Assembly: GCF_058153355.1 (NCBI RefSeq)
Contig: NZ_CM177019.1
DNA: 64,000 nt
Strand: one strand, 5' to 3'
Positions within the stretch are counted from its first letter, which is position 1; every line of letters starts with the position of its first letter. Under the pieces are notes generated by a model. That model was not told the DNA's origin and ran no database searches. It saw only the letters and a program-made list of their open reading frames with translations. This document shows positions 4,740-44,458 of this stretch, in pieces. The position numbers and the translations under genes are program-made.

Positions 4740-6161
4740 ATGATGAGCAAAATAAACCAAACGGATCTCGATCGGTTGATTGAACTGGTCGGCGGGCGCG
4801 GCAACATTGCGACGGTGAGCCACTGTATTACTCGCCTGCGCTTTGTCCTCAACCAACCGGCCAATGCCAGACCGAAAGAGATTGAGCAACTCCCCATGGT
4901 GAAAGGCTGTTTCACCAATGCCGGGCAATTTCAGGTGGTAATTGGCACCAACGTGGGTGATTACTATCAAGCGCTGATAGCGACGACCGGACAGGCGCAG
5001 GTTGATAAAGAGCAGGTGAAAAAAGCTGCCCGGCAGAATATGAAATGGCATGAGCAGTTGATCTCTCATTTCGCGGAGATCTTCTTCCCGCTGCTGCCCG
5101 CGTTGATTAGTGGTGGTTTGATCCTCGGTTTTCGCAATGTGATCGGTGATTTGCCCATGAGCAACGGTCAAACGCTGGCGCAAATGTACCCTTCCCTGCA
5201 AACGATCTACGATTTTCTATGGTTGATCGGTGAAGCGATCTTCTTCTACCTGCCGGTCGGAATTTGCTGGTCAGCGGTGAAAAAAATGGGCGGCACGCCG
5301 ATCCTCGGTATCGTGCTTGGCGTGACGCTGGTTTCCCCACAGTTGATGAACGCTTATCTGCTCGGGCAGCAGCTACCGGAAGTATGGAACTTTGGCATGT
5401 TCAGCATCGCCAAAGTGGGCTATCAGGCACAGGTTATTCCGGCACTGTTAGCCGGGCTGGCGCTGGGCGTGATAGAAACTCGCCTTAAGCGTATCGTGCC
5501 GGATTACCTCTATCTGGTGGTGGTGCCGGTCTGTTCGCTGATCCTCGCGGTGTTCCTCGCCCATGCGCTGATTGGTCCGTTTGGTCGCATGATTGGCGAT
5601 GGCGTTGCCTTTGCGGTGCGTCACCTGATGACCGGCAGCTTTGCCCCCATTGGTGCGGCATTGTTTGGCTTCCTTTATGCACCGCTGGTGATCACCGGCG
5701 TACACCAGACCACGCTTGCTATAGATTTGCAGATGATTCAAAGCATGGGTGGCACGCCAGTATGGCCGCTTATTGCGCTGTCGAATATCGCTCAGGGCTC
5801 CGCCGTGATAGGCATTATCATTTCCAGCCGCAAGAGCAATGAACGCGAGATCTCCGTACCTGCCGCTATCTCCGCCTGGCTTGGGGTCACTGAGCCTGCA
5901 ATGTACGGCATCAACCTGAAATATCGCTTCCCGATGCTGTGCGCGATGATTGGTTCTGGTCTGGCAGGATTGCTATGTGGTCTGAACGGCGTTATGGCGA
6001 ATGGCATCGGCGTAGGCGGCCTGCCGGGAATTCTCTCTATTCAACCGAGCTATTGGCAAGTGTTTGCGCTGGCAATGGCTATCGCCATCATCATCCCGAT
6101 TGTACTCACCTCATTTATCTACCAGCGGAAATACCGCCTGGGTACGCTGGACATTGTTTAA
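4740..6161 (+). CDS. treB: PTS trehalose-specific EIIBC component TreB
   Basis: 473-aa product from ATG 4740 (MMSKINQTDLDRLIELVGG...); N-terminal EIIB domain with the CITRLRF cysteine motif followed by a multi-pass EIIC domain. Confidence 0.95.
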   Translation: MMSKINQTDLDRLIELVGGRGNIATVSHCITRLRFVLNQPANARPKEIEQLPMVKGCFTNAGQFQVVIGTNVGDYYQALIATTGQAQVDKEQVKKAARQNMKWHEQLISHFAEIFFPLLPALISGGLILGFRNVIGDLPMSNGQTLAQMYPSLQTIYDFLWLIGEAIFFYLPVGICWSAVKKMGGTPILGIVLGVTLVSPQLMNAYLLGQQLPEVWNFGMFSIAKVGYQAQVIPALLAGLALGVIETRLKRIVPDYLYLVVVPVCSLILAVFLAHALIGPFGRMIGDGVAFAVRHLMTGSFAPIGAALFGFLYAPLVITGVHQTTLAIDLQMIQSMGGTPVWPLIALSNIAQGSAVIGIIISSRKSNEREISVPAAISAWLGVTEPAMYGINLKYRFPMLCAMIGSGLAGLLCGLNGVMANGIGVGGLPGILSIQPSYWQVFALAMAIAIIIPIVLTSFIYQRKYRLGTLDIV

Positions 6162-6210
6162 TTTTCTTCGGGGCGCAATTGCGCCCCCTCGCATTTGCAG
6201 GAATAACGTA

Positions 6211-7866
6211 ATGACGAATCTTCCCCACTGGTGGCAAAACGGCGTTATCTACCAGATTTATCCCAAGAGTTTTCAGGACACCACGGGTAGCGGCACCGGT
6301 GATTTACGTGGCGTTATCCAACGCCTGGACTATCTGCATAAACTGGGCGTCGATGCTATCTGGCTAACCCCCTTTTATGTCTCTCCCCAGGTCGATAACG
6401 GATACGACGTAGCGAACTATACGGCGATAGATCCCACTTACGGTACGCTGGACGATTTTGACGAAATGGTGACGCAGGCGAAATCACGCGGCATTCGTAT
6501 CATTCTCGATATGGTGTTTAACCATACCTCTACCCAACATGCCTGGTTTCGCGAGGCGCTGAGCAAAGAAAGCCCTTACCGCCAGTTTTATATCTGGCGC
6601 GATGGTGAACCAGAAACGCCACCGAATAACTGGCGTTCAAAATTTGGCGGTAGTGCGTGGCGCTGGCATGCAGAAAGCGAACAGTACTATTTGCATCTCT
6701 TTGCACCAGAACAGGCGGATCTCAACTGGGAGAATCCGGCGGTACGCGCAGAACTGAAAAAAGTCTGTGAGTTCTGGGCCGATCGCGGGGTCGACGGGTT
6801 ACGCCTGGATGTAGTGAATTTGATCTCTAAAGATCCGCGTTTTCCTAATGACCTGGATGGCGACGGGCGTCGCTTCTACACCGACGGGCCACGAGCACAC
6901 GAGTTTTTGCACGAGATGAACCGCGATGTGTTTACGCCTCGCGGTTTAATGACCGTGGGTGAAATGTCCTCCACCAGCCTTGAGCATTGCCAGCGATACG
7001 CGGCACTAACAGGCAGTGAATTGTCGATGACCTTTAATTTTCATCACCTGAAGGTCGATTATCCCGGTGGTGAAAAATGGACGCTGGCTAAACCTGACTT
7101 TGTGGCGTTGAAAGCATTGTTCCGCCACTGGCAACAAGGAATGCACAACGTGGCATGGAATGCCTTGTTCTGGTGTAACCACGATCAGCCGCGCATTGTT
7201 TCTCGTTTTGGTGATGAAGGGGACTACCGCGAACCTGCGGCAAAAATGCTGGCGATGGTGCTGCATGGCATGCAGGGAACGCCATATATCTATCAGGGCG
7301 AAGAGATTGGCATGACTAATCCACATTTCACGCGCATTACTGACTATCGCGACGTGGAGAGCCTCAATATGTTTGCCGAACTGCGCAACGATGGGCGTGA
7401 CGCCGAGGAGTTATTGGCAATCCTCGCCAGTAAATCCCGTGACAATAGTCGCACGCCAATGCAATGGAGCAACGGCGATAATGCCGGGTTTACAACGGGT
7501 GAACCGTGGATTGGCCTGGGCGATAACTATCAAGAAATCAACGTAGAAGCTGCGCTGGCCGATGAGTTCTCAGTGTTTTACACCTACCAAAAGTTAATCG
7601 CACTGCGTAAGCAAGAAGCCGTCCTGACATGGGGCAATTACCAGGATCTGCTGCCAGACAGCCCTGTATTGTGGTGCTATCGCCGTGAATGGAAGGGGCA
7701 AACCTTGCTGGTCATTGCCAACCTTAGCCGTGAGATCCAACCCTGGCAGCCAGGGCAAATGCGCGGAAACTGGCAGCTTGTGATGCATAACTACGAAGAA
7801 GCCTCAGCACAACCCTGTGCCATGACTTTACGGCCTTTTGAGGCCGTCTGGTGGTTACAGAAGTAA
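6211..7866 (+). CDS. treC: Trehalose-6-phosphate hydrolase TreC (GH13 alpha-glucosidase family)
   Basis: 551-aa product from ATG 6211 (MTNLPHWWQNGVIYQIYPKSF...); GH13 motifs DAIWLTP, GIRIILDMVFNHTS and GVDGLRLDVV. Confidence 0.95.
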   Translation: MTNLPHWWQNGVIYQIYPKSFQDTTGSGTGDLRGVIQRLDYLHKLGVDAIWLTPFYVSPQVDNGYDVANYTAIDPTYGTLDDFDEMVTQAKSRGIRIILDMVFNHTSTQHAWFREALSKESPYRQFYIWRDGEPETPPNNWRSKFGGSAWRWHAESEQYYLHLFAPEQADLNWENPAVRAELKKVCEFWADRGVDGLRLDVVNLISKDPRFPNDLDGDGRRFYTDGPRAHEFLHEMNRDVFTPRGLMTVGEMSSTSLEHCQRYAALTGSELSMTFNFHHLKVDYPGGEKWTLAKPDFVALKALFRHWQQGMHNVAWNALFWCNHDQPRIVSRFGDEGDYREPAAKMLAMVLHGMQGTPYIYQGEEIGMTNPHFTRITDYRDVESLNMFAELRNDGRDAEELLAILASKSRDNSRTPMQWSNGDNAGFTTGEPWIGLGDNYQEINVEAALADEFSVFYTYQKLIALRKQEAVLTWGNYQDLLPDSPVLWCYRREWKGQTLLVIANLSREIQPWQPGQMRGNWQLVMHNYEEASAQPCAMTLRPFEAVWWLQK

Positions 7867-10997: not shown

Positions 10998-11288
10998 TCA
11001 CTCATCCAGCCGTTTTGTCGCGTCTTCATAAACGGCTGAGTTCTCTCTCTTACCAATAGCTATCACCAACACGAGTAACTCTTTATCATTGACCTGATAG
11101 ACCAGGCGATATCCCAGTGTGCGAAGCTTAATTTTGTAGCAGTCCGGCAAATCCCGTAGTTTAGCCGATGGATTGCGCGGCCTTTTCAGCACATCCCCAA
11201 GCTTTTTTTTAAATTGTTCCCGGACTTTCACGCCCAGTTTTTGCCACTCCTTCAGCGCCCGCGGATCAAAAGCCAGTTCATAGTTCAT
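10998..11288 (-). CDS. RelE/StbE-family toxin (type II toxin-antitoxin mRNA interferase)
   Basis: 96-aa product MNYELAFDPRALKEWQKLG...YKIKLRTLGYRLVYQVNDKELLVLVIAIGKRE, typical RelE/ParE fold signature; ATG overlaps the stop of the upstream antitoxin gene by 11 nt. Confidence 0.8.
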   Translation of the reverse strand: MNYELAFDPRALKEWQKLGVKVREQFKKKLGDVLKRPRNPSAKLRDLPDCYKIKLRTLGYRLVYQVNDKELLVLVIAIGKRENSAVYEDATKRLDE

Positions 11289-11520
11289 CCAGTCGGACCT
11301 TAATGGCCTCCTGTGGGTTGGCCAGTCGTTCCCTGACAGTGCGTAACAAGGCTTCTTCACTATCACTGACAGTGAGCGTTTTTACCGGCATTCGTCCATT
11401 TTCCGCAACGTACTGAAACAGCAGCCGCACTGCTTCAGTAGGCGTGATATTTAATTTTTCCAGCACCGCATAAGCCTCATTTTTCAGTTTGTCATCCAGG
11501 CGGACGTTAAGTGTGGCCAT
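11278..11520 (-). CDS. RelB/DinJ-family antitoxin (ribbon-helix-helix)
   Basis: 80-aa product MATLNVRLDDKLKNEAYAVLEKLNITPTEAVRLLFQYV...; ribbon-helix-helix N-terminus; GGAGG RBS 8 nt upstream of the ATG. Confidence 0.8.
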   Translation of the reverse strand: MATLNVRLDDKLKNEAYAVLEKLNITPTEAVRLLFQYVAENGRMPVKTLTVSDSEEALLRTVRERLANPQEAIKVRLDEL

Positions 11521-11710: not shown

Positions 11711-12100
<390 letters not shown>

Positions 12101-15851: not shown

Positions 15852-16850
15852 ATGAAAACGTTAGGTGAATTTATTGTCGAAAAGCAGCACGAGTTTTCTC
15901 ATGCTACCGGTGAGCTCACTGCTTTGCTGTCGGCAATAAAACTGGGCGCCAAGATTATCCATCGCGATATCAACAAAGCAGGACTGGTTGATATCCTGGG
16001 TGCCAGCGGTGCTGAGAACGTGCAGGGCGAGGTTCAGCAGAAACTCGACTTGTTCGCTAATGAAAAACTGAAAGCCGCACTGAAAGCACGCGATATCGTT
16101 GCGGGCATTGCCTCTGAAGAAGAAGATGAGATTGTCGTCTTTGAAGGCTGTGAACACGCAAAATACGTGGTGCTGATGGACCCACTGGATGGCTCGTCCA
16201 ACATCGATGTTAACGTCTCTGTCGGTACCATTTTCTCCATCTACCGCCGCGTTACGCCTGTTGGCACGCCGGTAACGGAAGAAGATTTCCTCCAGCCTGG
16301 TAACAAACAGGTTGCGGCAGGTTACGTGGTATACGGCTCCTCTACCATGTTGGTTTACACCACCGGATGCGGTGTTCACGCCTTTACTTACGATCCTTCG
16401 CTTGGCGTTTTCTGCTTGTGCCAGGAACGGATGCGCTTCCCGGAGAAAGGCAAAACCTACTCCATCAACGAAGGGAACTACATTAAGTTTCCAAACGGGG
16501 TGAAGAAGTACATTAAATTCTGCCAGGAAGAAGATAAGTCCACCAACCGTCCATATACCTCACGTTATATCGGTTCACTGGTCGCGGATTTCCACCGTAA
16601 CCTGCTGAAAGGTGGGATTTATCTCTACCCAAGCACCGCCAGCCACCCGGACGGCAAACTGCGTTTGCTGTATGAGTGCAACCCGATGGCATTCCTGGCG
16701 GAACAAGCGGGCGGTAAAGCGAGTGATGGCAAAGAGCGTATTCTGGATATCATCCCGGAAACTCTGCACCAGCGCCGTTCATTCTTTGTCGGCAACGACC
16801 ATATGGTTGAAGATGTCGAACGCTTTATCCGTGAGTTCCCGGACGCGTAA
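15852..16850 (+). CDS. fbp: Fructose-1,6-bisphosphatase class I
   Basis: 332-aa product from ATG 15852 ([32 protein letters not shown]...). Confidence 0.95.
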
Positions 16851-16887
16851 ATGAGTTAACGCCGGAGCAGTCCGGCGTTTTCAATTA

Positions 16888-17403
16888 TCAATTAACAAAG
16901 GTTAATTTGACTCGTTTAGATACGCAAAAATAGGGGATCCAGATTGCAAGATGGATGATACTTTTCAGAAGCTCCCATGCATCTGTCAATTCAAATGAGG
17001 CATTAAGAAAGTGCATTGTCCCCCAAATATCAGCCACAATGAATGCAAACAGTGACAGAAGAAGGGCAATATAATACTGTGGAAGCTGGCGTTTTTTGTT
17101 AAAAAACAAATAAGTAGTATAAATCAACAGCAGAAACAAAACGGCAAATCCGGCGGTTTCCAGATAAAGTGCCGTCCTGAGCGGTTCTTCGTAAATTACG
17201 TGAGTAAGCCCCCAAGTATGGATAATTGAATACGCGTTCGCAAGAATACCAAGCACTAAACCAATTGCCGGCAGAAATAGCCAGCCGCCAATCCCTGTAA
17301 GCTTTTTATCCGCACAACTTTTACAATAATCGTCAGGTGGTAAAACAGCCACACCACAGTTTTTACATGTTGTTTGTAATTCTTCGCCGTCCTTCACCCA
17401 CAT
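16888..17403 (-). CDS. Small membrane protein with an N-terminal CxxC...CxxC zinc ribbon and about four predicted TM helices (DUF2569-like)
   Basis: 171-aa ORF MWVKDGEELQTTCKNCGVAVLPPDDYCKSCADKKLTGIGGWLFLPAIGLVLGILA...; AAGGA RBS 7 nt upstream; visibly AT-rich relative to its neighbours. Confidence 0.7.
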   Translation of the reverse strand: MWVKDGEELQTTCKNCGVAVLPPDDYCKSCADKKLTGIGGWLFLPAIGLVLGILANAYSIIHTWGLTHVIYEEPLRTALYLETAGFAVLFLLLIYTTYLFFNKKRQLPQYYIALLLSLFAFIVADIWGTMHFLNASFELTDAWELLKSIIHLAIWIPYFCVSKRVKLTFVN

Positions 17404-17430
17404 AAAAATATCCTTATATATCAGTAAAAT

Positions 17431-18435
17431 TTATTCTTTTAGTCTAATTTCCGGACTCACTCTCATTACTGGCGAACTCTGGCGATTCTCCCACAGCACC
17501 GTTAATCCACGCTGTAAGGCAATAAAAATGAACAGCAAAATGCCGATGGCGATTTTCGTCCACCAGGAACTCAGCGTACCGTCAAAGTTGATATATGTCT
17601 GAATCAGTCCCTGAATCGCCACGCCAAAAAGCGTCCCAAGTACTGTTCCAACGCCACCGCTCAAAAGTGTACCGCCAATCACCACTGAGGCGATAGCGTC
17701 CAGTTCCACACCTACGCCCGCCAGCGCATATCCGGCTTGGGTATAAATCGAGAAAACAATCCCCGCCAGTGTTGCCAGCCCGGTGGAGAGCATATAAATG
17801 CGAATAGTGGTGCTGCGAGTGGAAATGCCCATCAGGTTCGCCGACGTCGCGTTGCCACCAATGGCGTATACCTGATTACCAAAACGGGTACGATGCGCGA
17901 GGAATATGCCGATAACCACCACCGCAAGCATCAGCAGCCCCATCGCACTTAAGCGACCGCCGCCAGGGATTTTCCATGCAAGGCTTGAGAGCGTGTCATA
18001 AACAGGATGATTTATCGGGATCGACTCTTCCGAAACTAGATAGCTGACGCCACGCAAAAAGAACATTCCTGCCAGAGTAATGATAAACGCCGGGATCTTC
18101 AGGGCGTCGATCAAAAGCCCCATAAATGCGCCAAAGGCACAGCCCATCACCAGCACCAGTGGAAACGCCAGCAGCGGCGAGAGGCCGAAATCGCCAATCA
18201 CTTTTGCCAGAAACACGCCGGTAAAGGCGATCACCGAACCGACGGAGAGATCGATCCCACCGGAGAGGATCACAAAGGTCATGCCAACGGCGATGATCCC
18301 CAGAAAAGCGTTATCGGTCAGGATATTGCAGATCACTCTTGTGGAAGCAAAACCGGGAAACTGCGTCAGACAGTAGAGATAACCCAGCACAAAGACGCCG
18401 ATGGTGATCATAAGCGGCAGGTTACGTTTTATCAC
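17431..18435 (-). CDS. yjfF: Galactofuranose ABC transporter permease YjfF
   Basis: Multi-pass ABC-2/monosaccharide permease; last gene of the ytfQRT-yjfF cluster; exact start uncertain. Confidence 0.9.
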   Translation of the reverse strand: MIKRNLPLMITIGVFVLGYLYCLTQFPGFASTRVICNILTDNAFLGIIAVGMTFVILSGGIDLSVGSVIAFTGVFLAKVIGDFGLSPLLAFPLVLVMGCAFGAFMGLLIDALKIPAFIITLAGMFFLRGVSYLVSEESIPINHPVYDTLSSLAWKIPGGGRLSAMGLLMLAVVVIGIFLAHRTRFGNQVYAIGGNATSANLMGISTRSTTIRIYMLSTGLATLAGIVFSIYTQAGYALAGVGVELDAIASVVIGGTLLSGGVGTVLGTLFGVAIQGLIQTYINFDGTLSSWWTKIAIGILLFIFIALQRGLTVLWENRQSSPVMRVSPEIRLKE

Positions 18436-19444
18436 GGCTACGCACTCCTTTAATCAGACTGATAAAGCGTTGCGACTGAACAATCAGCACGCAAAGCACC
18501 ACTACCGCTTTCACCACCTGGTTCATCTCTGGCGGAAAGCCAGAAAGTAAAATTCCGGTGTTCATCCCCTGAATAATCAGCGCCCCTACCACTGAGAGCA
18601 GCAGGTTAAAACGCCCGCCCATCAGCGATCCGCCGCCAATCACCACCGCAAGAATGGCGTCCAGCTCCAGCCATAATCCGGCGTTGTTGGCATCGGCACC
18701 GCGAATATCCGCCGCCACGATAATGCCCGCAATCGCCGCACACAGCCCGCTCAACACATAAGTGAGCATGACGATGATTCGTGTGTTGACTCCGGCATTT
18801 TTTGCCGCCCGAATGTTGATACCAACGGCTTCGATAAACATCCCCAGTGCCGTTTTGCGGGTCAACAGCCAGAAGAGGAGAAGCGTCAGTACCGCAATAA
18901 TGACTGGTGTTGGCAGGAACACCAGCGATCCGCTGCCAAACCATGAGAGATCCGGCGAGTTAAACGTGACGATCTGTCCGGAGGTGATCAGTTGCGCCAC
19001 GCCGCGCCCGGCGACCATCAGGATCAGGGTGGCGACAAACGGCTGAATTTTGAGGATCGCTACCAGTATGCCGTTCCACAACCCCGCTAGGATGCCGGTG
19101 CCCAGGGCGCTTAACAAAACAATCGGCAGGCTGAATCCCGCGACCGTCATCGCAGCCGTTGTGGCTCCGGCGATAGCCATCACCGCCCCTACGGAGAGAT
19201 CGATACCACCGGTGGCGATAACCAGCGTCATGCCAATCGCCAGTAGCGCAACCGGGGCGGCGCGATTAAGAATGTCGATGGGGCTACCGAACAAACGCCC
19301 ATCCTGAAGCACGACCTGCCAGAAATGCGGGGCCACCAGGCTATCGACCAGCAGCACCAGCAATAGCGCCGCCAGCTGCGGCATTCCCGTTGGCCAGCGA
19401 AAGCGCCTTTTCGACGGCGTAGTGTCCGGGAGAGATTGAGGCAT
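18422..19444 (-). CDS. ytfT: Galactofuranose ABC transporter permease YtfT
   Basis: Permease with a strong RBS (TAAGGAGAA) immediately upstream of ATG 19444; the ORF-track start 19468 is rejected. Confidence 0.9.
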   Translation of the reverse strand: MPQSLPDTTPSKRRFRWPTGMPQLAALLLVLLVDSLVAPHFWQVVLQDGRLFGSPIDILNRAAPVALLAIGMTLVIATGGIDLSVGAVMAIAGATTAAMTVAGFSLPIVLLSALGTGILAGLWNGILVAILKIQPFVATLILMVAGRGVAQLITSGQIVTFNSPDLSWFGSGSLVFLPTPVIIAVLTLLLFWLLTRKTALGMFIEAVGINIRAAKNAGVNTRIIVMLTYVLSGLCAAIAGIIVAADIRGADANNAGLWLELDAILAVVIGGGSLMGGRFNLLLSVVGALIIQGMNTGILLSGFPPEMNQVVKAVVVLCVLIVQSQRFISLIKGVRSRDKT

Positions 19445-22889: not shown

Positions 22890-23237
22890 GTTCTTCTAGT
22901 GCCATAACCCTGAACGCCGGGCTTCGGTTAGTAAGGGTTTTTTATGCCCGCGATAAATAAACTCTCTATTCCCCTATCATTATTCTCAGCGCTTGCAAGG
23001 CTTGAACGGTAAGAACAAGCAAACACGACCACCATTTTGCTGTTCATAGCCGCTTGCTGGAAATTAGCCGACCTCACTCATTCTCACCGTTCAAAGCATG
23101 CCCCCGTTTTACCCCTACGTAATTGTGAACGCCAGCAGAGTTTTTTATGCGTTTACGGATATGGAAAGCGGCTCGGAGAGAAAAGCTAAAGATAGGGAAG
23201 TTACAAAAAAAATCGCGAGATACATCGCATAAAACAA

Positions 23238-40237: not shown

Positions 40238-41731
40238 TCAGTCTTTCAATGGACGTAATTCATTGTTGTAACTGGTGTAACTGCCTTCAACGGTAAGTAG
40301 ATTGCCGTTTTCATCAAGATGCGCCGCATTGAGTTGTCGAGTTTCATTACGCCGCTTCGCATCACGTACCAGCCCATCGCCTACGTAATAAATATAGTGG
40401 TCATCATGAGCAAAGGTATCTGATAATTGACCATTGGCGTATTTAAACCACGTCCATTGGCCTTTCAGTTCAAATTGCTCAACCGTGTTTTCATCAATAA
40501 AATACGTAAAGCGATCGTCATGTGCTAAATAATTTAATGGTGTGCCATCGTGGCTTTTATACCACTGCCATTGCCCATTAATATCAAAAATAGTCACATC
40601 ATCGCTCGCAATGAAATAAAATTTATTCCCTATAATATTAACGCCTTCATGTAATTCTTGTTGTGGGTCGGGTAAATGAATAACCGACAGTGTTTTTTCG
40701 ACCCCAGAAACATACTTCACCAGATAGAGCGAATCTTTATATTGCGCCACATTCTTCGTCAGCGGGCGAAAATATTCCGGATCAACATCAGGAATGGTCG
40801 CAACCCGGCAGTCATTGGCACGCCAGGAAACGTCACGCGTCATCCATGTTACTTTATCCCGCTGTAGGTCAAACGTATTTCGGCACTCTTTACCGAACGC
40901 ATAACGTTTCTCCCCGTCCTTATCGCGATAAATCAGCAGGGAACCGGCTATCCAGCGCACAATATGAAAGGTGTCCGGATCGGCGTTGATGGAATCTCCG
41001 TTCACAAAGACCTGCGATTTTGTCCGCCAGATTGTATCCCAGGGTGCGGGATGCCCCCAATTTTCACAAGTGTTTGGCAAATAAAGAATATTCCGTTGGG
41101 CCCAGGGTTTAATGTCAAGAATAGAATATCCTTGCGTACTACCCAACCAGCGTCCCTGAAAGTAAAGATTGCGACGATCTTTCAGTACATCCGCGGAATC
41201 AATTAAATTCATCCTCCCCCCCACCTGTTGCAGCGAATCCATATCGACCTGCTTTTCGCCGTGATTATCATCCGTGCGTTCGCCATCAAAATAGAGGCTG
41301 TCTTTATCAGCGGCAAAACGCCCCCATGCGCGGAATGTTGCGGCATCGACTTTCGGTGTTCCCGGCGGGTTCTGAACTATTTTCCCTGCCCATAAAATAT
41401 GGCGACCATCGGTCAACCAGTCGAAACGCCAACTACCGTTAGTTCTGATATTAGTGCCAGCATCTACCTGAACATAATCATTATTGATATCATCAGGAGA
41501 ATCATATTTATCATCAGTGCCGTTGGGTACGCGGCGAAGTTGCTTAAACTTCACCTGCGATAAATGAATATCCGGAAAATAGAGTCCGTAACCATCACTA
41601 TCTTCAACGATATATTTTGTTCCTTGCCCCCACGGCTGGTAGTAAAACGCAGCAGCAGGCACACCGGAGCAGGCTAGTGAGGAGGTTGAAAATAAAGCCA
41701 GTGCGAGACAAACGGGTTTAATTGGCAACAT
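40238..41731 (-). CDS. Secreted repeat protein, paralogue 1 (DKNYY-like repeats; function unknown)
   Basis: 497-aa product with signal peptide MLPIKPVCLALALFSTSSLA; repeated D-K-x-x-[LIV]-Y-[FY] and A-D-x-x-T/S-F motifs (e.g. VDAATFRAWGRFAADKDSLYFDG); AGGA RBS. Confidence 0.75.
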   Translation of the reverse strand: MLPIKPVCLALALFSTSSLACSGVPAAAFYYQPWGQGTKYIVEDSDGYGLYFPDIHLSQVKFKQLRRVPNGTDDKYDSPDDINNDYVQVDAGTNIRTNGSWRFDWLTDGRHILWAGKIVQNPPGTPKVDAATFRAWGRFAADKDSLYFDGERTDDNHGEKQVDMDSLQQVGGRMNLIDSADVLKDRRNLYFQGRWLGSTQGYSILDIKPWAQRNILYLPNTCENWGHPAPWDTIWRTKSQVFVNGDSINADPDTFHIVRWIAGSLLIYRDKDGEKRYAFGKECRNTFDLQRDKVTWMTRDVSWRANDCRVATIPDVDPEYFRPLTKNVAQYKDSLYLVKYVSGVEKTLSVIHLPDPQQELHEGVNIIGNKFYFIASDDVTIFDINGQWQWYKSHDGTPLNYLAHDDRFTYFIDENTVEQFELKGQWTWFKYANGQLSDTFAHDDHYIYYVGDGLVRDAKRRNETRQLNAAHLDENGNLLTVEGSYTSYNNELRPLKD

Positions 41732-41763
41732 AGCATCATCCTGAAGCTGTTAGCGTGAAGAGG

Positions 41764-42921
41764 TTATTTAAATAAGGGTTTAAGACCGCTCGGGGGTTGC
41801 TTCACCGATGACCAACCTCCCTTACCTAAGTTATAACGCAGCCATTCACCTTGTTGGGCGTGCTCTTTCCCAATTCCAGTCGCTTGTTGAGTGTAAAGCT
41901 GCCCGTCTGTTGATATAAACGTGTTAGTTAATCCCCAACTACCACCTGCTTCAAGTGAGTCGGTGAGATCCTCTGGCTTGAGATTAATCAACTCCCCTTC
42001 GCCCAGGGCGTTGGTTGTTACTTTATAAATTTGGTTCTTATATAAACCGGTATTCCGAACAAACAGATAAAAATATTCCGGATCAACTCCCGCCAGCGTT
42101 TCATAAACACAATCACTACCCGCTGGCGTTGCTTCTTGTTTGAGCCAGGACACAGTCTTCAAACCAATATTAAATGACGCACAACTGTGACTAATATCCT
42201 CCAACTTATAGTCATGCTCACCGCTTTTATCGCGATAAACCAACCGTTCGCCAGGCATCCAACGTTTAATCTGAAAAGTTTTGCGATCGGCGGGCAGTGG
42301 CTTGCCATTAACGATCACCTGCGAATTTGTCAGCACAACAAATTGCAGGGCGGAATCATGCCGCACGATTTGAAATCCATCGGCATGACCCAACCAGCGC
42401 CCTTTATGCCAGAGGCCATTTTTATCACGCAGTAAATTCCAGATGTCCGTCTCTTCCAGCGTTGACATATCCACCTGCTTATCACCGCTATTATCATCGG
42501 TACGCTGGCCGTCAAAATAGATACTGCGTTTATCGGCAGCGAAAGCGCCGAATGCCTGAAAACTGGCAGCGTCGACTTTAGGTTTACCGGGGGGATTTTT
42601 CAGGACTTTGCCTGCCCAAATAACAAAGCGTCCATCGGTGAGCCAGGAATGCTGGCAATCCCCCTTATCATCGCAATCGAACTTATCGGGATTAAAATCG
42701 GACAGTAACCGGCAATCTTGCTTATTAGCTAAATTGGCAATGCGCCAGAGGCGGGAAAAATTAACGTCTGGTAATTCGGAGAGGATCTCATCTTCTTTTC
42801 CCTTCTGTTCGGCAACGTAAACCGTGCCTTTATCATGCTGGCGGTAATAAAAATCCGCGCCCCAGGAAGGTAAAATGGAGAGAGGTAATGCGGCGATTAA
42901 TAACCAACTGCGCTTAACCAT
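41764..42921 (-). CDS. Secreted repeat protein, paralogue 2 (DKNYY-like repeats; function unknown)
   Basis: 385-aa product from ATG 42921 with signal peptide MVKRSWLLIAALPLSILPSWGA; shares long identical or similar blocks with paralogue 1 (WLTDGRxxxWAGKxxxNPPGxPKVDAAxFxAxGxFAADKxSxYFDGxRTDDNxGxKQVDM). The ORF-track N-terminal extension (to 43080) overlapping cycA is rejected. Confidence 0.7.
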   Translation of the reverse strand: MVKRSWLLIAALPLSILPSWGADFYYRQHDKGTVYVAEQKGKEDEILSELPDVNFSRLWRIANLANKQDCRLLSDFNPDKFDCDDKGDCQHSWLTDGRFVIWAGKVLKNPPGKPKVDAASFQAFGAFAADKRSIYFDGQRTDDNSGDKQVDMSTLEETDIWNLLRDKNGLWHKGRWLGHADGFQIVRHDSALQFVVLTNSQVIVNGKPLPADRKTFQIKRWMPGERLVYRDKSGEHDYKLEDISHSCASFNIGLKTVSWLKQEATPAGSDCVYETLAGVDPEYFYLFVRNTGLYKNQIYKVTTNALGEGELINLKPEDLTDSLEAGGSWGLTNTFISTDGQLYTQQATGIGKEHAQQGEWLRYNLGKGGWSSVKQPPSGLKPLFK

Positions 42922-43013
42922 AGTGAACTCTGCAACGAGTGGCAAAGATCCACGGTAAGCTCGCGCCTGAGGGCTGTCTATGATGGTAGATTTTTTTAGG
43001 AATATATAAAGAC

Positions 43014-43035
43014 AAAGGCACCCGCAGGTGCCTTT
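43014..43035 (-). terminator. Rho-independent terminator downstream of cycA
   Basis: aaaggcacc-cgca-ggtgccttt stem with flanking T/A tracts, 20 nt after the cycA stop. Confidence 0.55.
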
Positions 43036-43054
43036 CAGAGTTATAAACGCGGCA

Positions 43055-44458
43055 TTACTTCGCCATGCGTTTTTTACCAATAAACAACCAGCCCAACCCC
43101 AGCGCGATAAACCACAGCGGGGTAACTATCAGCGCCTGGCGAGTGTCATCTTCCAGTGTCAGCAGCACGACCACGAACACAAAGAACGCCATACATACCC
43201 AGCACATCAGCTTGCCGAGCGGCATCTTGTAGATAGACTTCTCATGCAGGTGCGGACGCTGTTTGCGATACACCAGGTATGAGCAAAGGATAATCGTCCA
43301 GACGAACATAAACAGAATCGCGGAAACAGTCGTGATCATCGTGAACGCGCCAATTACACTTGGATTCACATACAACATCACCACGCCGCCAAGCAGACAG
43401 ATACAAGAGAAGGTCAGCCCTTTCGCGGGTACGGCGCGCTTAGAAAGTTTAGCGAACGCTTTCGGCGCAACACCTTCCTGGGCCAGACCAAACAGCATAC
43501 GGCTGGTAGAGAAGACGCCGCTGTTAGCGGAAGACGCCGCAGAGGTCAGCACCACAAAGTTGATTACGCTGGCAGCCGCAGGCAAACCCACCAACACAAA
43601 CAATTCAACAAACGGGCTTTTCTCCGGGACTACTGAACTCCACGGCGTCACGGACATAATCACAATCAGCGCGAAGACGTAGAACATAATGATACGGATC
43701 GGAATGGAGTTAATCGCACGTGGCAGTGATTTCTCCGGATCTTTCGTTTCCGCAGCGGTTGTACCGACCAGCTCAATCCCCACGAAAGCGAAAACCGCTA
43801 TCTGGAATCCGGCAAAGAAGCCACTTAAACCTTTCGGGAACCAGCCGCCGTCATTCCACAAATGCGCGAATGACGCTTCCACACCGGTCGGTGACTGAAA
43901 GTGCATCGCCACCATGACCAGGCCGACGACAATCAGTGACACGATGGCGACAATTTTGATCATCGCAAACCAGAACTCCATCTCACCGAACATTTTCACG
44001 GTGGCGAGGTTAAGCGTCAGCAGCAGCACTATCACCGCCAGCGAGGCGACCCAGTCGGAGAGATCGGGGAACCAGAACTGAGCATAGGCAGTGATGGCCA
44101 CCACGTCCGCCATACCGGTAACCACCCAGCAGAACCAGTAGGTCCAGCCAGTGAAATATCCCGCCCATGGCCCCAGTAAATCGGAAGCGAAGTCACTAAA
44201 AGATTTGTATTCCAGATTCGAAAGCAGCAATTCCCCCATTGCCCGCATCACGAAAAAGAGCATAAAACCGATGATCATATAAACGAAGATGATCGACGGT
44301 CCGGCAAGGCTGATTGTTTTACCGGACCCCATAAACAACCCCGTACCAATGGCCCCACCAATGGCAATAAGCTGAATATGTCGGTTTGTGAGATTGCGCC
44401 GTAGCGACTGTTCAGCCGGAGCCTGATCATCGGCAACGACTTTTACCTGATCTACCAT
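43055..44458 (-). CDS. cycA: D-serine/D-alanine/glycine:H+ symporter CycA (APC family)
   Basis: 467-aa product MVDQVKVVADDQAPAEQSLRRNLTNRHIQLIAIGGAIGTGLFMGSG... Confidence 0.95.
   Translation of the reverse strand: MVDQVKVVADDQAPAEQSLRRNLTNRHIQLIAIGGAIGTGLFMGSGKTISLAGPSIIFVYMIIGFMLFFVMRAMGELLLSNLEYKSFSDFASDLLGPWAGYFTGWTYWFCWVVTGMADVVAITAYAQFWFPDLSDWVASLAVIVLLLTLNLATVKMFGEMEFWFAMIKIVAIVSLIVVGLVMVAMHFQSPTGVEASFAHLWNDGGWFPKGLSGFFAGFQIAVFAFVGIELVGTTAAETKDPEKSLPRAINSIPIRIIMFYVFALIVIMSVTPWSSVVPEKSPFVELFVLVGLPAAASVINFVVLTSAASSANSGVFSTSRMLFGLAQEGVAPKAFAKLSKRAVPAKGLTFSCICLLGGVVMLYVNPSVIGAFTMITTVSAILFMFVWTIILCSYLVYRKQRPHLHEKSIYKMPLGKLMCWVCMAFFVFVVVLLTLEDDTRQALIVTPLWFIALGLGWLFIGKKRMAK

Follow-up and report, generated by a model that had tools for sequence, protein, structure and literature searches.

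What occupies the gap between yjfF and fbp at the end of the conserved ytfQRT-yjfF transporter operon, how did it come to be there and what might it do? In Escherichia coli K-12 MG1655 this gap is just 32 nt long. In a 64,000-nt stretch of contig NZ_CM177019.1 (RefSeq assembly GCF_058153355.1; hereafter the window, meaning the whole stretch analysed), the same place holds an open reading frame (ORF) of 171 codons at 16888-17403 on the minus strand, which a first-pass annotation made from the letters alone had taken for an AT-rich membrane-protein gene, perhaps horizontally acquired and apparently missing from K-12. We show here that the ORF is a functional gene, accessory and non-essential, whose 171-aa product is an inner-membrane protein of the DUF2569 family, that it has long occupied the yjfF/fbp slot in Enterobacteriaceae, E. 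coli sensu stricto being without it, and that its horizontal movement occurs as replacement of alleles or of a ~0.6-kb cassette. As to its role, we tentatively propose that the protein may be a membrane-embedded protective factor in inter-bacterial antagonism.

A functional gene for a zinc-ribbon DUF2569 protein

In at least eight diverged alleles, drawn from three genera, the frame runs uninterrupted for 170-171 aa, and the ratio of non-synonymous to synonymous substitution rates (dN/dS, or omega) is 0.13-0.37 across Escherichia and Citrobacter alleles, which argues that the ORF is more than a product of chance and that the encoded protein is functional. A gene in E. coli 2020CK-00188 whose product (WP_032185775.1) is named 'DUF2569 domain-containing protein' in RefSeq is a 100% DNA match, and the ORF list holds no plus-strand ORF of at least 50 aa overlapping 16888..17403. 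The notion of a non-functional or decaying ORF could appeal to the rarity and AT-richness of the gene and to a frameshifted paralog on a plasmid of strain EC93. However, it is scarcely credible, since the frame is intact, all four cysteines are retained from genus to genus along with every family motif, and the omega values attest to purifying selection.

The protein matches Pfam PF10754 with a score of 89.7 bits (gathering score 26.5; E=3.1e-25) over residues 36-170, aligned to positions 2-143 of the 143-position profile, which bears out an earlier suggestion that a profile search might return DUF2569. It is therefore a new member of a known family, in a locus-specific zinc-ribbon subfamily, and its gene was already annotated in RefSeq. 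NCBIfam held nothing informative for it, PHROGs returned a chance-level match only (E=0.41), and Foldseek found no match in the PDB at E<=0.001 for the AlphaFold2 (AF2) model. In the literature searched, DUF2569 appears only as a table entry in a single paper and ydgK, a K-12 gene of the family, only in omics lists. The features of the locus are as follows.

16888..17403, minus strand: DUF2569 protein coding sequence, 171 aa plus stop (ORF list, 100% DNA match, dN/dS)
17314..17367, minus strand: predicted zinc ribbon, residues 13-30, CKNC-x10-CKSC, predicted to be cytoplasmic (cysteine positions)
16894..17298, minus strand: DUF2569 (PF10754) domain, residues 36-170, with four transmembrane (TM) helices and a C-terminal amphipathic tail (Pfam, AF2)
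17411..17415, minus strand: Shine-Dalgarno-like AAGGA, 7 nt before the ATG (sequence; kept in 6/6 aligned Escherichia alleles)
16858..16879, unstranded: GC-rich hairpin AACGCCGGA-GCAG-TCCGGCGTT, lying where the DUF2569 gene and fbp converge (folding)
16851..17467, unstranded: 617-bp presence/absence cassette comprising the hairpin, the gene, the spacer and the 3' end of yjfF, its final 12 codons and stop (alignments)
17431..18435, minus strand: yjfF, the upstream permease gene, 334 aa (ORF list, annotation, alignment)

A motif of four cysteines (C13, C16, C27 and C30, giving CKNC-x10-CKSC) precedes the DUF2569 domain; the 13-residue spacing between its two CxxC pairs that had been read at first was thus an error. 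CxxC-x10/11-CxxC immediately before GIGGWL defines an Enterobacterales subgroup of zinc-ribbon-fused DUF2569 proteins, and all four cysteines are aligned in 16/16 of these zinc-ribbon members. The motif is a predicted zinc ribbon; zinc-ribbon Pfam families gave weak matches to the protein, all sub-threshold. An AlphaFold2 model built from an 88-sequence alignment (mean predicted local distance difference test score, pLDDT, 88.4; predicted template-modelling score, pTM, 0.75) has four long helices at residues 40-69, 73-102, 107-133 and 139-161 followed by a short C-terminal helix, and Kyte-Doolittle hydropathy supports three of these strongly and the fourth more weakly. The three conserved motifs of the DUF2569 domain are all present, with residues that are invariant or near-invariant in the 88 sequences: GIGGWL at the start of TM1 (G40, W41, L42), LFFxKKRxxP between TM2 and TM3 (F100, P108) and the C-terminal WIPYFxxSKRVKxTF (W155, Y158, S162, R164, V165, T168, F169). 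The positive-inside rule predicts a cytoplasmic location for both termini, for the ribbon and the SKRVK tail that they carry and for the KKRQ loop, which would put all conserved motifs at the cytoplasmic face of the membrane.

An old occupant of the yjfF/fbp slot

Among 5,426 complete 'E. coli' genomes the gene is found in 12, always on the chromosome (seven copies at at least 99% identity, two at 81.9% and three at 78.0%) and, whichever of the three allele classes it belongs to, always between yjfF and fbp; it is thus accessory, and K-12 is without it, as first supposed. The order yjfF-gene-fbp recurs in a contig of E. albertii type and in both Citrobacter enshiensis and Klebsiella spallanzanii, and Escherichia sp. 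E1V33 and E. whittamii are also carriers in which the aligned flanks put the gene at the same slot. This cross-genus distribution comes from named database matches, confined to Escherichia (E. albertii, E. whittamii, E1V33), C. enshiensis and K. spallanzanii, and from four look-ups; a contig scan with a single protein query gave two close relatives.

The striking base composition reported at the outset is real. The gene has a GC content of 0.409, and of 0.384 at third codon positions (GC3), versus 0.509-0.574 and 0.565-0.674, respectively, in eight neighbouring genes, and the dip is visible in the composition profile. This composition (0.41 versus ~0.53 in the flanks), together with the absence of the gene from K-12 and from 99.8% of complete E. 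coli genomes and the occurrence of homologs on plasmids, could denote a recently acquired foreign gene inserted between fbp and yjfF. Such an origin is nevertheless very improbable and largely refuted by cross-genus synteny, since an equally AT-rich ortholog sits at the same slot in three genera. Across all genera checked, the gene has a GC content of 0.41-0.44 versus 0.51-0.57 for yjfF, which makes low GC an enduring trait of the gene rather than a sign of recent import. The boundaries of the segment carry no mobility genes, repeats or att-like duplications, and no phage homolog was found by tblastn against 50,697 phage records. Furthermore, the window genome itself belongs to a divergent lineage. 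It is 94.6-96.7% identical to K-12 over positions 479-44320, and its tamB segment is at best 97.2% identical to that of a complete 'E. coli' genome, 5,400 of 5,425 genomes lying at 90-95%, which points to a divergent Escherichia lineage. This lineage is poorly represented among complete genomes and, judging from these identities, may be something like cryptic clade I.

Movement by replacement of alleles and of a cassette

How the gene moves is apparent from strains with almost the same flanks. Alignment of the window to two gene-less strains (L025 and L026), whose flanks are near-identical (ytfT-yjfF 99.9%), and to a K-12-like strain defined the extent of a 617-bp cassette, which is replaced in L025 and L026 by 61 unrelated bp with sharp boundaries. 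Presence of the gene is therefore polymorphic even among close relatives of the window strain. The 61 bp correspond to a K-12-type terminator plus a yjfF tail. The possibility that K-12 came to its gene-less form by simple deletion was considered and rejected, because its 61 bp are unrelated and bring a terminator of their own.

Where the gene is present, its alleles disagree with their flanks in both directions. In L003 and L011 the flanks have a synonymous divergence (dS) of 0.03-0.05 and the gene one of 0.93, nucleotide identity falling from 98-100% in the flanks to 62-82% exactly across the cassette. The reverse is seen in L004 and L006, where the gene has a dS of 0.09 and the flanks one of 0.25-0.62. 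The allele of E1V33 is a mosaic, its first ~100 nt being of whittamii type and the remainder of window type. This disagreement indicates that the gene is exchanged by recombination through conserved flanks and that old alleles persist. Hence the horizontal acquisition that had been suggested stands in the form of allele or cassette replacement and fails in that of a recent foreign insertion.

Further observations concern the strains just mentioned. L003, whose flanks are nearly identical to those of the E. albertii-type contig L011, is the 'E. coli' strain SCPM-O-B-9504. Its ytfT (5536-6558) is annotated as a pseudogene with an internal stop, and the DUF2569 gene downstream is intact. In L011 an additional ~180 bp (~6520-6730) separate the DUF2569 gene from fbp, an insert that contains palindromes resembling repetitive extragenic palindromic (REP) elements and a second copy of the terminator hairpin.

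Fast and spatially focused divergence

The protein changes much faster than its neighbours. Amino acid identity to the window protein is 46-91%, versus 87-100% for YjfF, Fbp and YtfT, and dN is 0.03-0.43 for the gene versus 0.007-0.06 for yjfF and ytfT, i.e. ~4-30 times higher. In most pairs omega is 0.02-0.08 for yjfF, fbp and ytfT; in the near-identical pair L003/L011 it is 0.25-0.28 for these genes, a value resting on very few substitutions.

This variation is unevenly distributed. When omega was computed in sliding 15-codon windows pooled over six Escherichia alleles, it was 0.06-0.14 at the ribbon/TM1 junction, the TM2-TM3 loop and the C-terminus, and 0.4-0.74 over residues ~46-100 and 121-145, which are the periplasm-proximal halves of the bundle. 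The variation is thus fast, spatially focused divergence, and positive selection is not claimed.

Relation to the transporter operon

The position of the gene behind yjfF could suggest a link with the transporter. As first described, it continues the ytfQRT-yjfF operon on the same strand, a spacer of 27 nt (17404-17430) separating the yjfF stop (ends 17431) from the ORF start, which has its own AAGGA. A consensus scan between yjfF and the ORF revealed no promoter-like or terminator-like site, a promoter scan found no sigma-70-like site 5' of the gene, and the spacer has no significant RNA structure (z score -0.39). Given the short gap, the Shine-Dalgarno sequence and the lack of an intervening terminator, the gene is probably co-transcribed with ytfQRT-yjfF. 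At its other end, the hairpin at 16858-16879 folds with -16.0 kcal/mol on the minus strand and -17.4 kcal/mol on the plus strand (z scores -4.5 and -5.3), is kept in all alleles aligned and is a probable bidirectional terminator; the consensus terminator scan missed it because its T-run is short. Rfam had no match on either strand of 16000-18500.

One reading would be that the protein, made from the transporter's own mRNA, serves the YtfQRT-YjfF galactofuranose ABC transporter as an accessory or regulatory subunit. Besides the arrangement just described, with a ribosome-binding site of its own and no terminator before the gene, order and strand with the transporter are kept in Escherichia, Citrobacter and Klebsiella, and the C-terminal tail of YjfF changes together with gene presence. 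We nevertheless consider such a subunit unlikely. The transporter is present in 5,425 of the 5,426 genomes and the gene in 12, so that 5,414 genomes keep the transporter without it, while the excess in dN over YjfF and YtfT is unlike what would be seen for a stoichiometric partner. Other zinc-ribbon DUF2569 homologs whose surroundings were read do not adjoin the transporter. Finally, the change in the YjfF tail simply follows from the cassette boundary: because the 3' tail of yjfF falls inside the cassette, YjfF is 334 aa long in the window versus 331 aa in K-12.

With regard to the transporter itself, RefSeq entries (L001, L002 and others) name YtfT 'galactofuranose ABC transporter, ATP-binding protein', whereas the one family that the product matches is the permease family BPD_transp_2 (PF02653). 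The name is probably a slip.

Relatives in contact-dependent inhibition arrays

More informative than the neighbours of the gene are those of its relatives. Searching plasmids by tblastn brought up DUF2569 homologs, among which two other zinc-ribbon subfamilies were found inside orphan arrays of contact-dependent inhibition (CDI) systems. In 9 of the 11 array loci read, the DUF2569 gene lies directly 3' of a glycine-zipper ionophore module consisting of a CdiA C-terminal region (CT) and a CdiI with two TM helices. Glycine-zipper CdiA-CTs are ionophores, and their CdiI partners are 72-100-aa hairpins with both termini inside, highly polymorphic and specific; the ionophore entry domains hijack AcrB, SecY, YciB, PuuP/PlaP and DtpA/B (Halvorsen et al. 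2024, PMC11630599). No DUF2569 gene is mentioned in that study, nor in the EC93 genome paper or the 2011 orphan-module paper, and an association of DUF2569 with CDI arrays was not found described in the literature searched.

Type 1 proteins (164 aa, e.g. WP_000388880.1) occur in 34 of the 5,426 genomes and follow a glycine-rich CdiA-CT and an 82-85-aa protein with two TM helices in 7/7 loci read, namely the E. coli plasmids L016 (5005-6504), L018 and L019, the Enterobacter plasmid L020 (4786-6510), the chromosomal loci L027 and L029, and L028. The last, set in the context of an integrative and conjugative element (ICE), was considered as an exception to the CDI link, which was rejected since an ionophore CT/CdiI pair and remnants lie directly upstream. 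Type 2 proteins (173 aa, e.g. WP_129541708.1; 16 of the 5,426 genomes) are ~37% identical to the window protein over their full length, and the frameshifted EC93 copy is 42.6% identical by tblastn. They are in CDI arrays in 4/4 loci read. In L029 and L031 a glycine-rich CT/CdiI pair is just upstream; in L015 (EC93 pCP127, 4992-5491, the gene being frameshifted) a DUF769/DUF596 orphan pair precedes the gene, and in L030 the gene comes after a frameshifted pre-toxin fragment. L029 holds both subfamilies within one array.

An orphan colicin V immunity gene, cvi, is also present ~1 kb 3' of the type 1 gene in the plasmid arrays (L016 7514-7750, L018 8514-8750, L019 8453-8689), which suggests that membrane immunity genes accumulate in these regions.

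The yjfF/fbp orthologs group together in a clade of their own in a neighbour-joining tree, and the array types fall in separate clades. Adjacency to toxin genes is seen in the paralogous subfamilies only, the neighbours of the window gene being yjfF and fbp. The slot can, however, hold more than one subfamily. In K. spallanzanii two zinc-ribbon DUF2569 genes stand in tandem between yjfF and fbp (L009 5245-5748 and 6001-6513), ~32% and ~45% identical to the window protein, the upstream copy being of a different subfamily. Because the subfamilies differ, the pair is not a recent duplication and the slot is a small array in this species.

A tentative protective function and its alternatives

Taken together, these data are compatible with a scenario, advanced tentatively and from comparative evidence, in which the window protein would be a membrane-embedded, immunity-like factor protecting the cell against antagonism from other bacteria. 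The cytoplasmic face of the protein, with the conserved zinc ribbon, GIGGWL and WIPYFxxSKRVKxTF, would serve as an invariant scaffold or partner contact, while the fast-evolving outer helix halves and periplasmic turns would be the surface meeting membrane-inserting toxins, e.g. CDI ionophores or pore-forming bacteriocins; the protein would take no part in galactofuranose transport. What speaks for a protective role is that this is a real gene under purifying selection that behaves as a cassette and varies in its outer half, that it has relatives in CDI arrays, that two subfamilies stand in tandem in K. spallanzanii, and that CdiI is likewise hydrophobic, N-in/C-in and polymorphic (PMC11630599). 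A bolder version, which we regard as rather unlikely, would make zinc-ribbon DUF2569 proteins an unrecognised class of protection or modulation factors tied to CDI ionophores, as third genes of CT/CdiI modules; the yjfF/fbp gene would then be the stand-alone chromosomal version, with divergent recombining alleles kept by frequency-dependent selection in Escherichia and relatives.

A number of observations speak against a protective role. Nowhere in the 64-kb window is there any similarity to CdiA, VENN, CT or CdiI, and the window protein matched neither the anti-phage defence profiles of PADLOC nor, at E<=1, the colicin/microcin immunity families of Pfam. No 15-codon window has an omega above 1, the maximum being 0.74, and for this reason relaxed constraint explains the variation equally well; moreover, the split into inner and outer halves was picked after the alignment had been seen. 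In the arrays, cognate CdiI by itself protects K-12 target cells (PMC11630599), which implies that the DUF2569 genes borne there are not required for ionophore immunity. Between type 1 loci of E. coli and Enterobacter, DUF2569 is 85% conserved, versus 61% for the adjacent CT and 56% for CdiI, which is the opposite of what a specificity determinant would show. Other zinc-ribbon DUF2569 homologs are near csc sucrose genes or near a DeoR regulator and an Opp-like transporter, and further ones are in unrelated contexts on Pantoea and Phytobacter plasmids. Finally, the DUF2569 family is very large, with 2,098 cluster representatives at E<=1e-3 in a HMMER search, and includes the core K-12 gene ydgK, while the fusion of some members to TPR, DnaJ, GYF_2 or double zinc-ribbon domains points to a general function at the cytoplasmic face.

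Several of these points would suit a general DUF2569 membrane adaptor that has nothing to do with antagonism, an alternative we consider about as likely as a protective role. In such an adaptor the cytoplasmic face would bind a housekeeping partner or lipid, and the weakly constrained outer half would drift fast and the gene be easily lost. That omega never reaches 1 and that the invariant residues all cluster at the cytoplasmic boundary would be as expected, and so would the size of the family with its core gene and its protein-interaction fusions (TPR, DnaJ, GYF_2), the generic four-helix bundle fold and the scattered contexts of homologs. However, an adaptor leaves unexplained the upkeep and exchange of very old mosaic alleles (gene dS 0.93, flank dS 0.05), as well as the presence of two sister subfamilies within CDI ionophore arrays at 11/11 loci read.

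The same variation could also be the mark of a susceptibility factor, i.e. a non-essential inner-membrane protein exploited by toxins or phage for entry, which hosts are selected to vary or delete. CDI ionophore entry domains do hijack assorted inner-membrane proteins (PMC11630599), nearly all E. coli have lost the gene, its presence varies within the nearest clade, and variation is concentrated in the periplasm-proximal half of the protein. We find this improbable, because homologs in the inhibitor strains' own cdi arrays would be left unexplained, each of the six E. coli ionophore groups already has another protein assigned as its receptor (PMC11630599) and omega is below 1.

Whatever the outcome for the protective factor proposed here, the gene alone is an ordinary annotated 'DUF2569 domain-containing protein', and it is the locus that is instructive. 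It is a small hotspot of presence/absence and allele replacement at the end of a conserved operon, one that sets E. coli sensu stricto apart from the cryptic Escherichia clades, and its example illustrates that persistent AT-richness need not imply recent acquisition. The recurrence of zinc-ribbon DUF2569 genes after CDI ionophore modules is a testable lead and, if this association is functional, it would provide the first testable role for DUF2569, a family of ~2,100 cluster representatives.

Other features of the window

Several other segments of the window differ from K-12. Between nrdG and cybC, ~700 bp absent from K-12 contain a RelE/RelB-type toxin-antitoxin pair (10998-11520), with the toxin ORF at 10998-11366 and the antitoxin, of 80 aa, at 11278-11520, and cybC itself (11711-12097), a pseudogene in K-12, is intact. 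Conversely, the ytfP-ppa gap, which in K-12 holds the chpS-chpB toxin-antitoxin module (~650 bp), is just ~140 bp long in the window (22962-23105), and the module is therefore absent. Between ytfE and cycA, in ~2.9 kb that K-12 is without, there are two paralogous ORFs of 497 and 438 aa (40238-43080, minus strand), one with a weak sub-threshold match to DKNYY (PF13644) and the other with no Pfam match.

Comparison with known systems

Ionophore CdiI proteins are, like the window protein, small, very hydrophobic inner-membrane proteins with cytoplasmic termini that are polymorphic and accessory (Halvorsen et al. 2024, PMC11630599). They differ in being 72-100-aa two-helix hairpins with neither zinc ribbon nor conserved motifs, are always paired with a toxin and have no sequence similarity to the window protein. 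Types 1 and 2 of the CDI arrays have the same CxxC-x10/11-CxxC followed by DUF2569, are likewise AT-rich accessory genes of similar length and are 26-43% identical to the window protein. In contrast to the window gene, which has no toxin neighbour, they sit, in most loci read, directly after an ionophore CdiA-CT/CdiI pair, and they belong to separate clades.

In size and predicted topology, the window protein is comparable to the immunity proteins of colicin A-type pore-formers, which are ~175 aa long with four TM helices, both termini inside and a membrane-embedded action, but these have no zinc ribbon and, unlike the window gene, are plasmid-borne beside the colicin gene. Within the family, K-12 has YdgK (b1626), an inner-membrane protein encoded upstream of rsxA. 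It is only 25-33% identical, has no zinc ribbon and is the product of a core gene of 49% GC at another locus. Nonetheless, YdgK belongs to the same Pfam family, has four TM helices and shares with the window protein GGWL at the start of TM1, the FFKRRRxxP loop and the PYFxxSxRVKxTFVN C-terminus.

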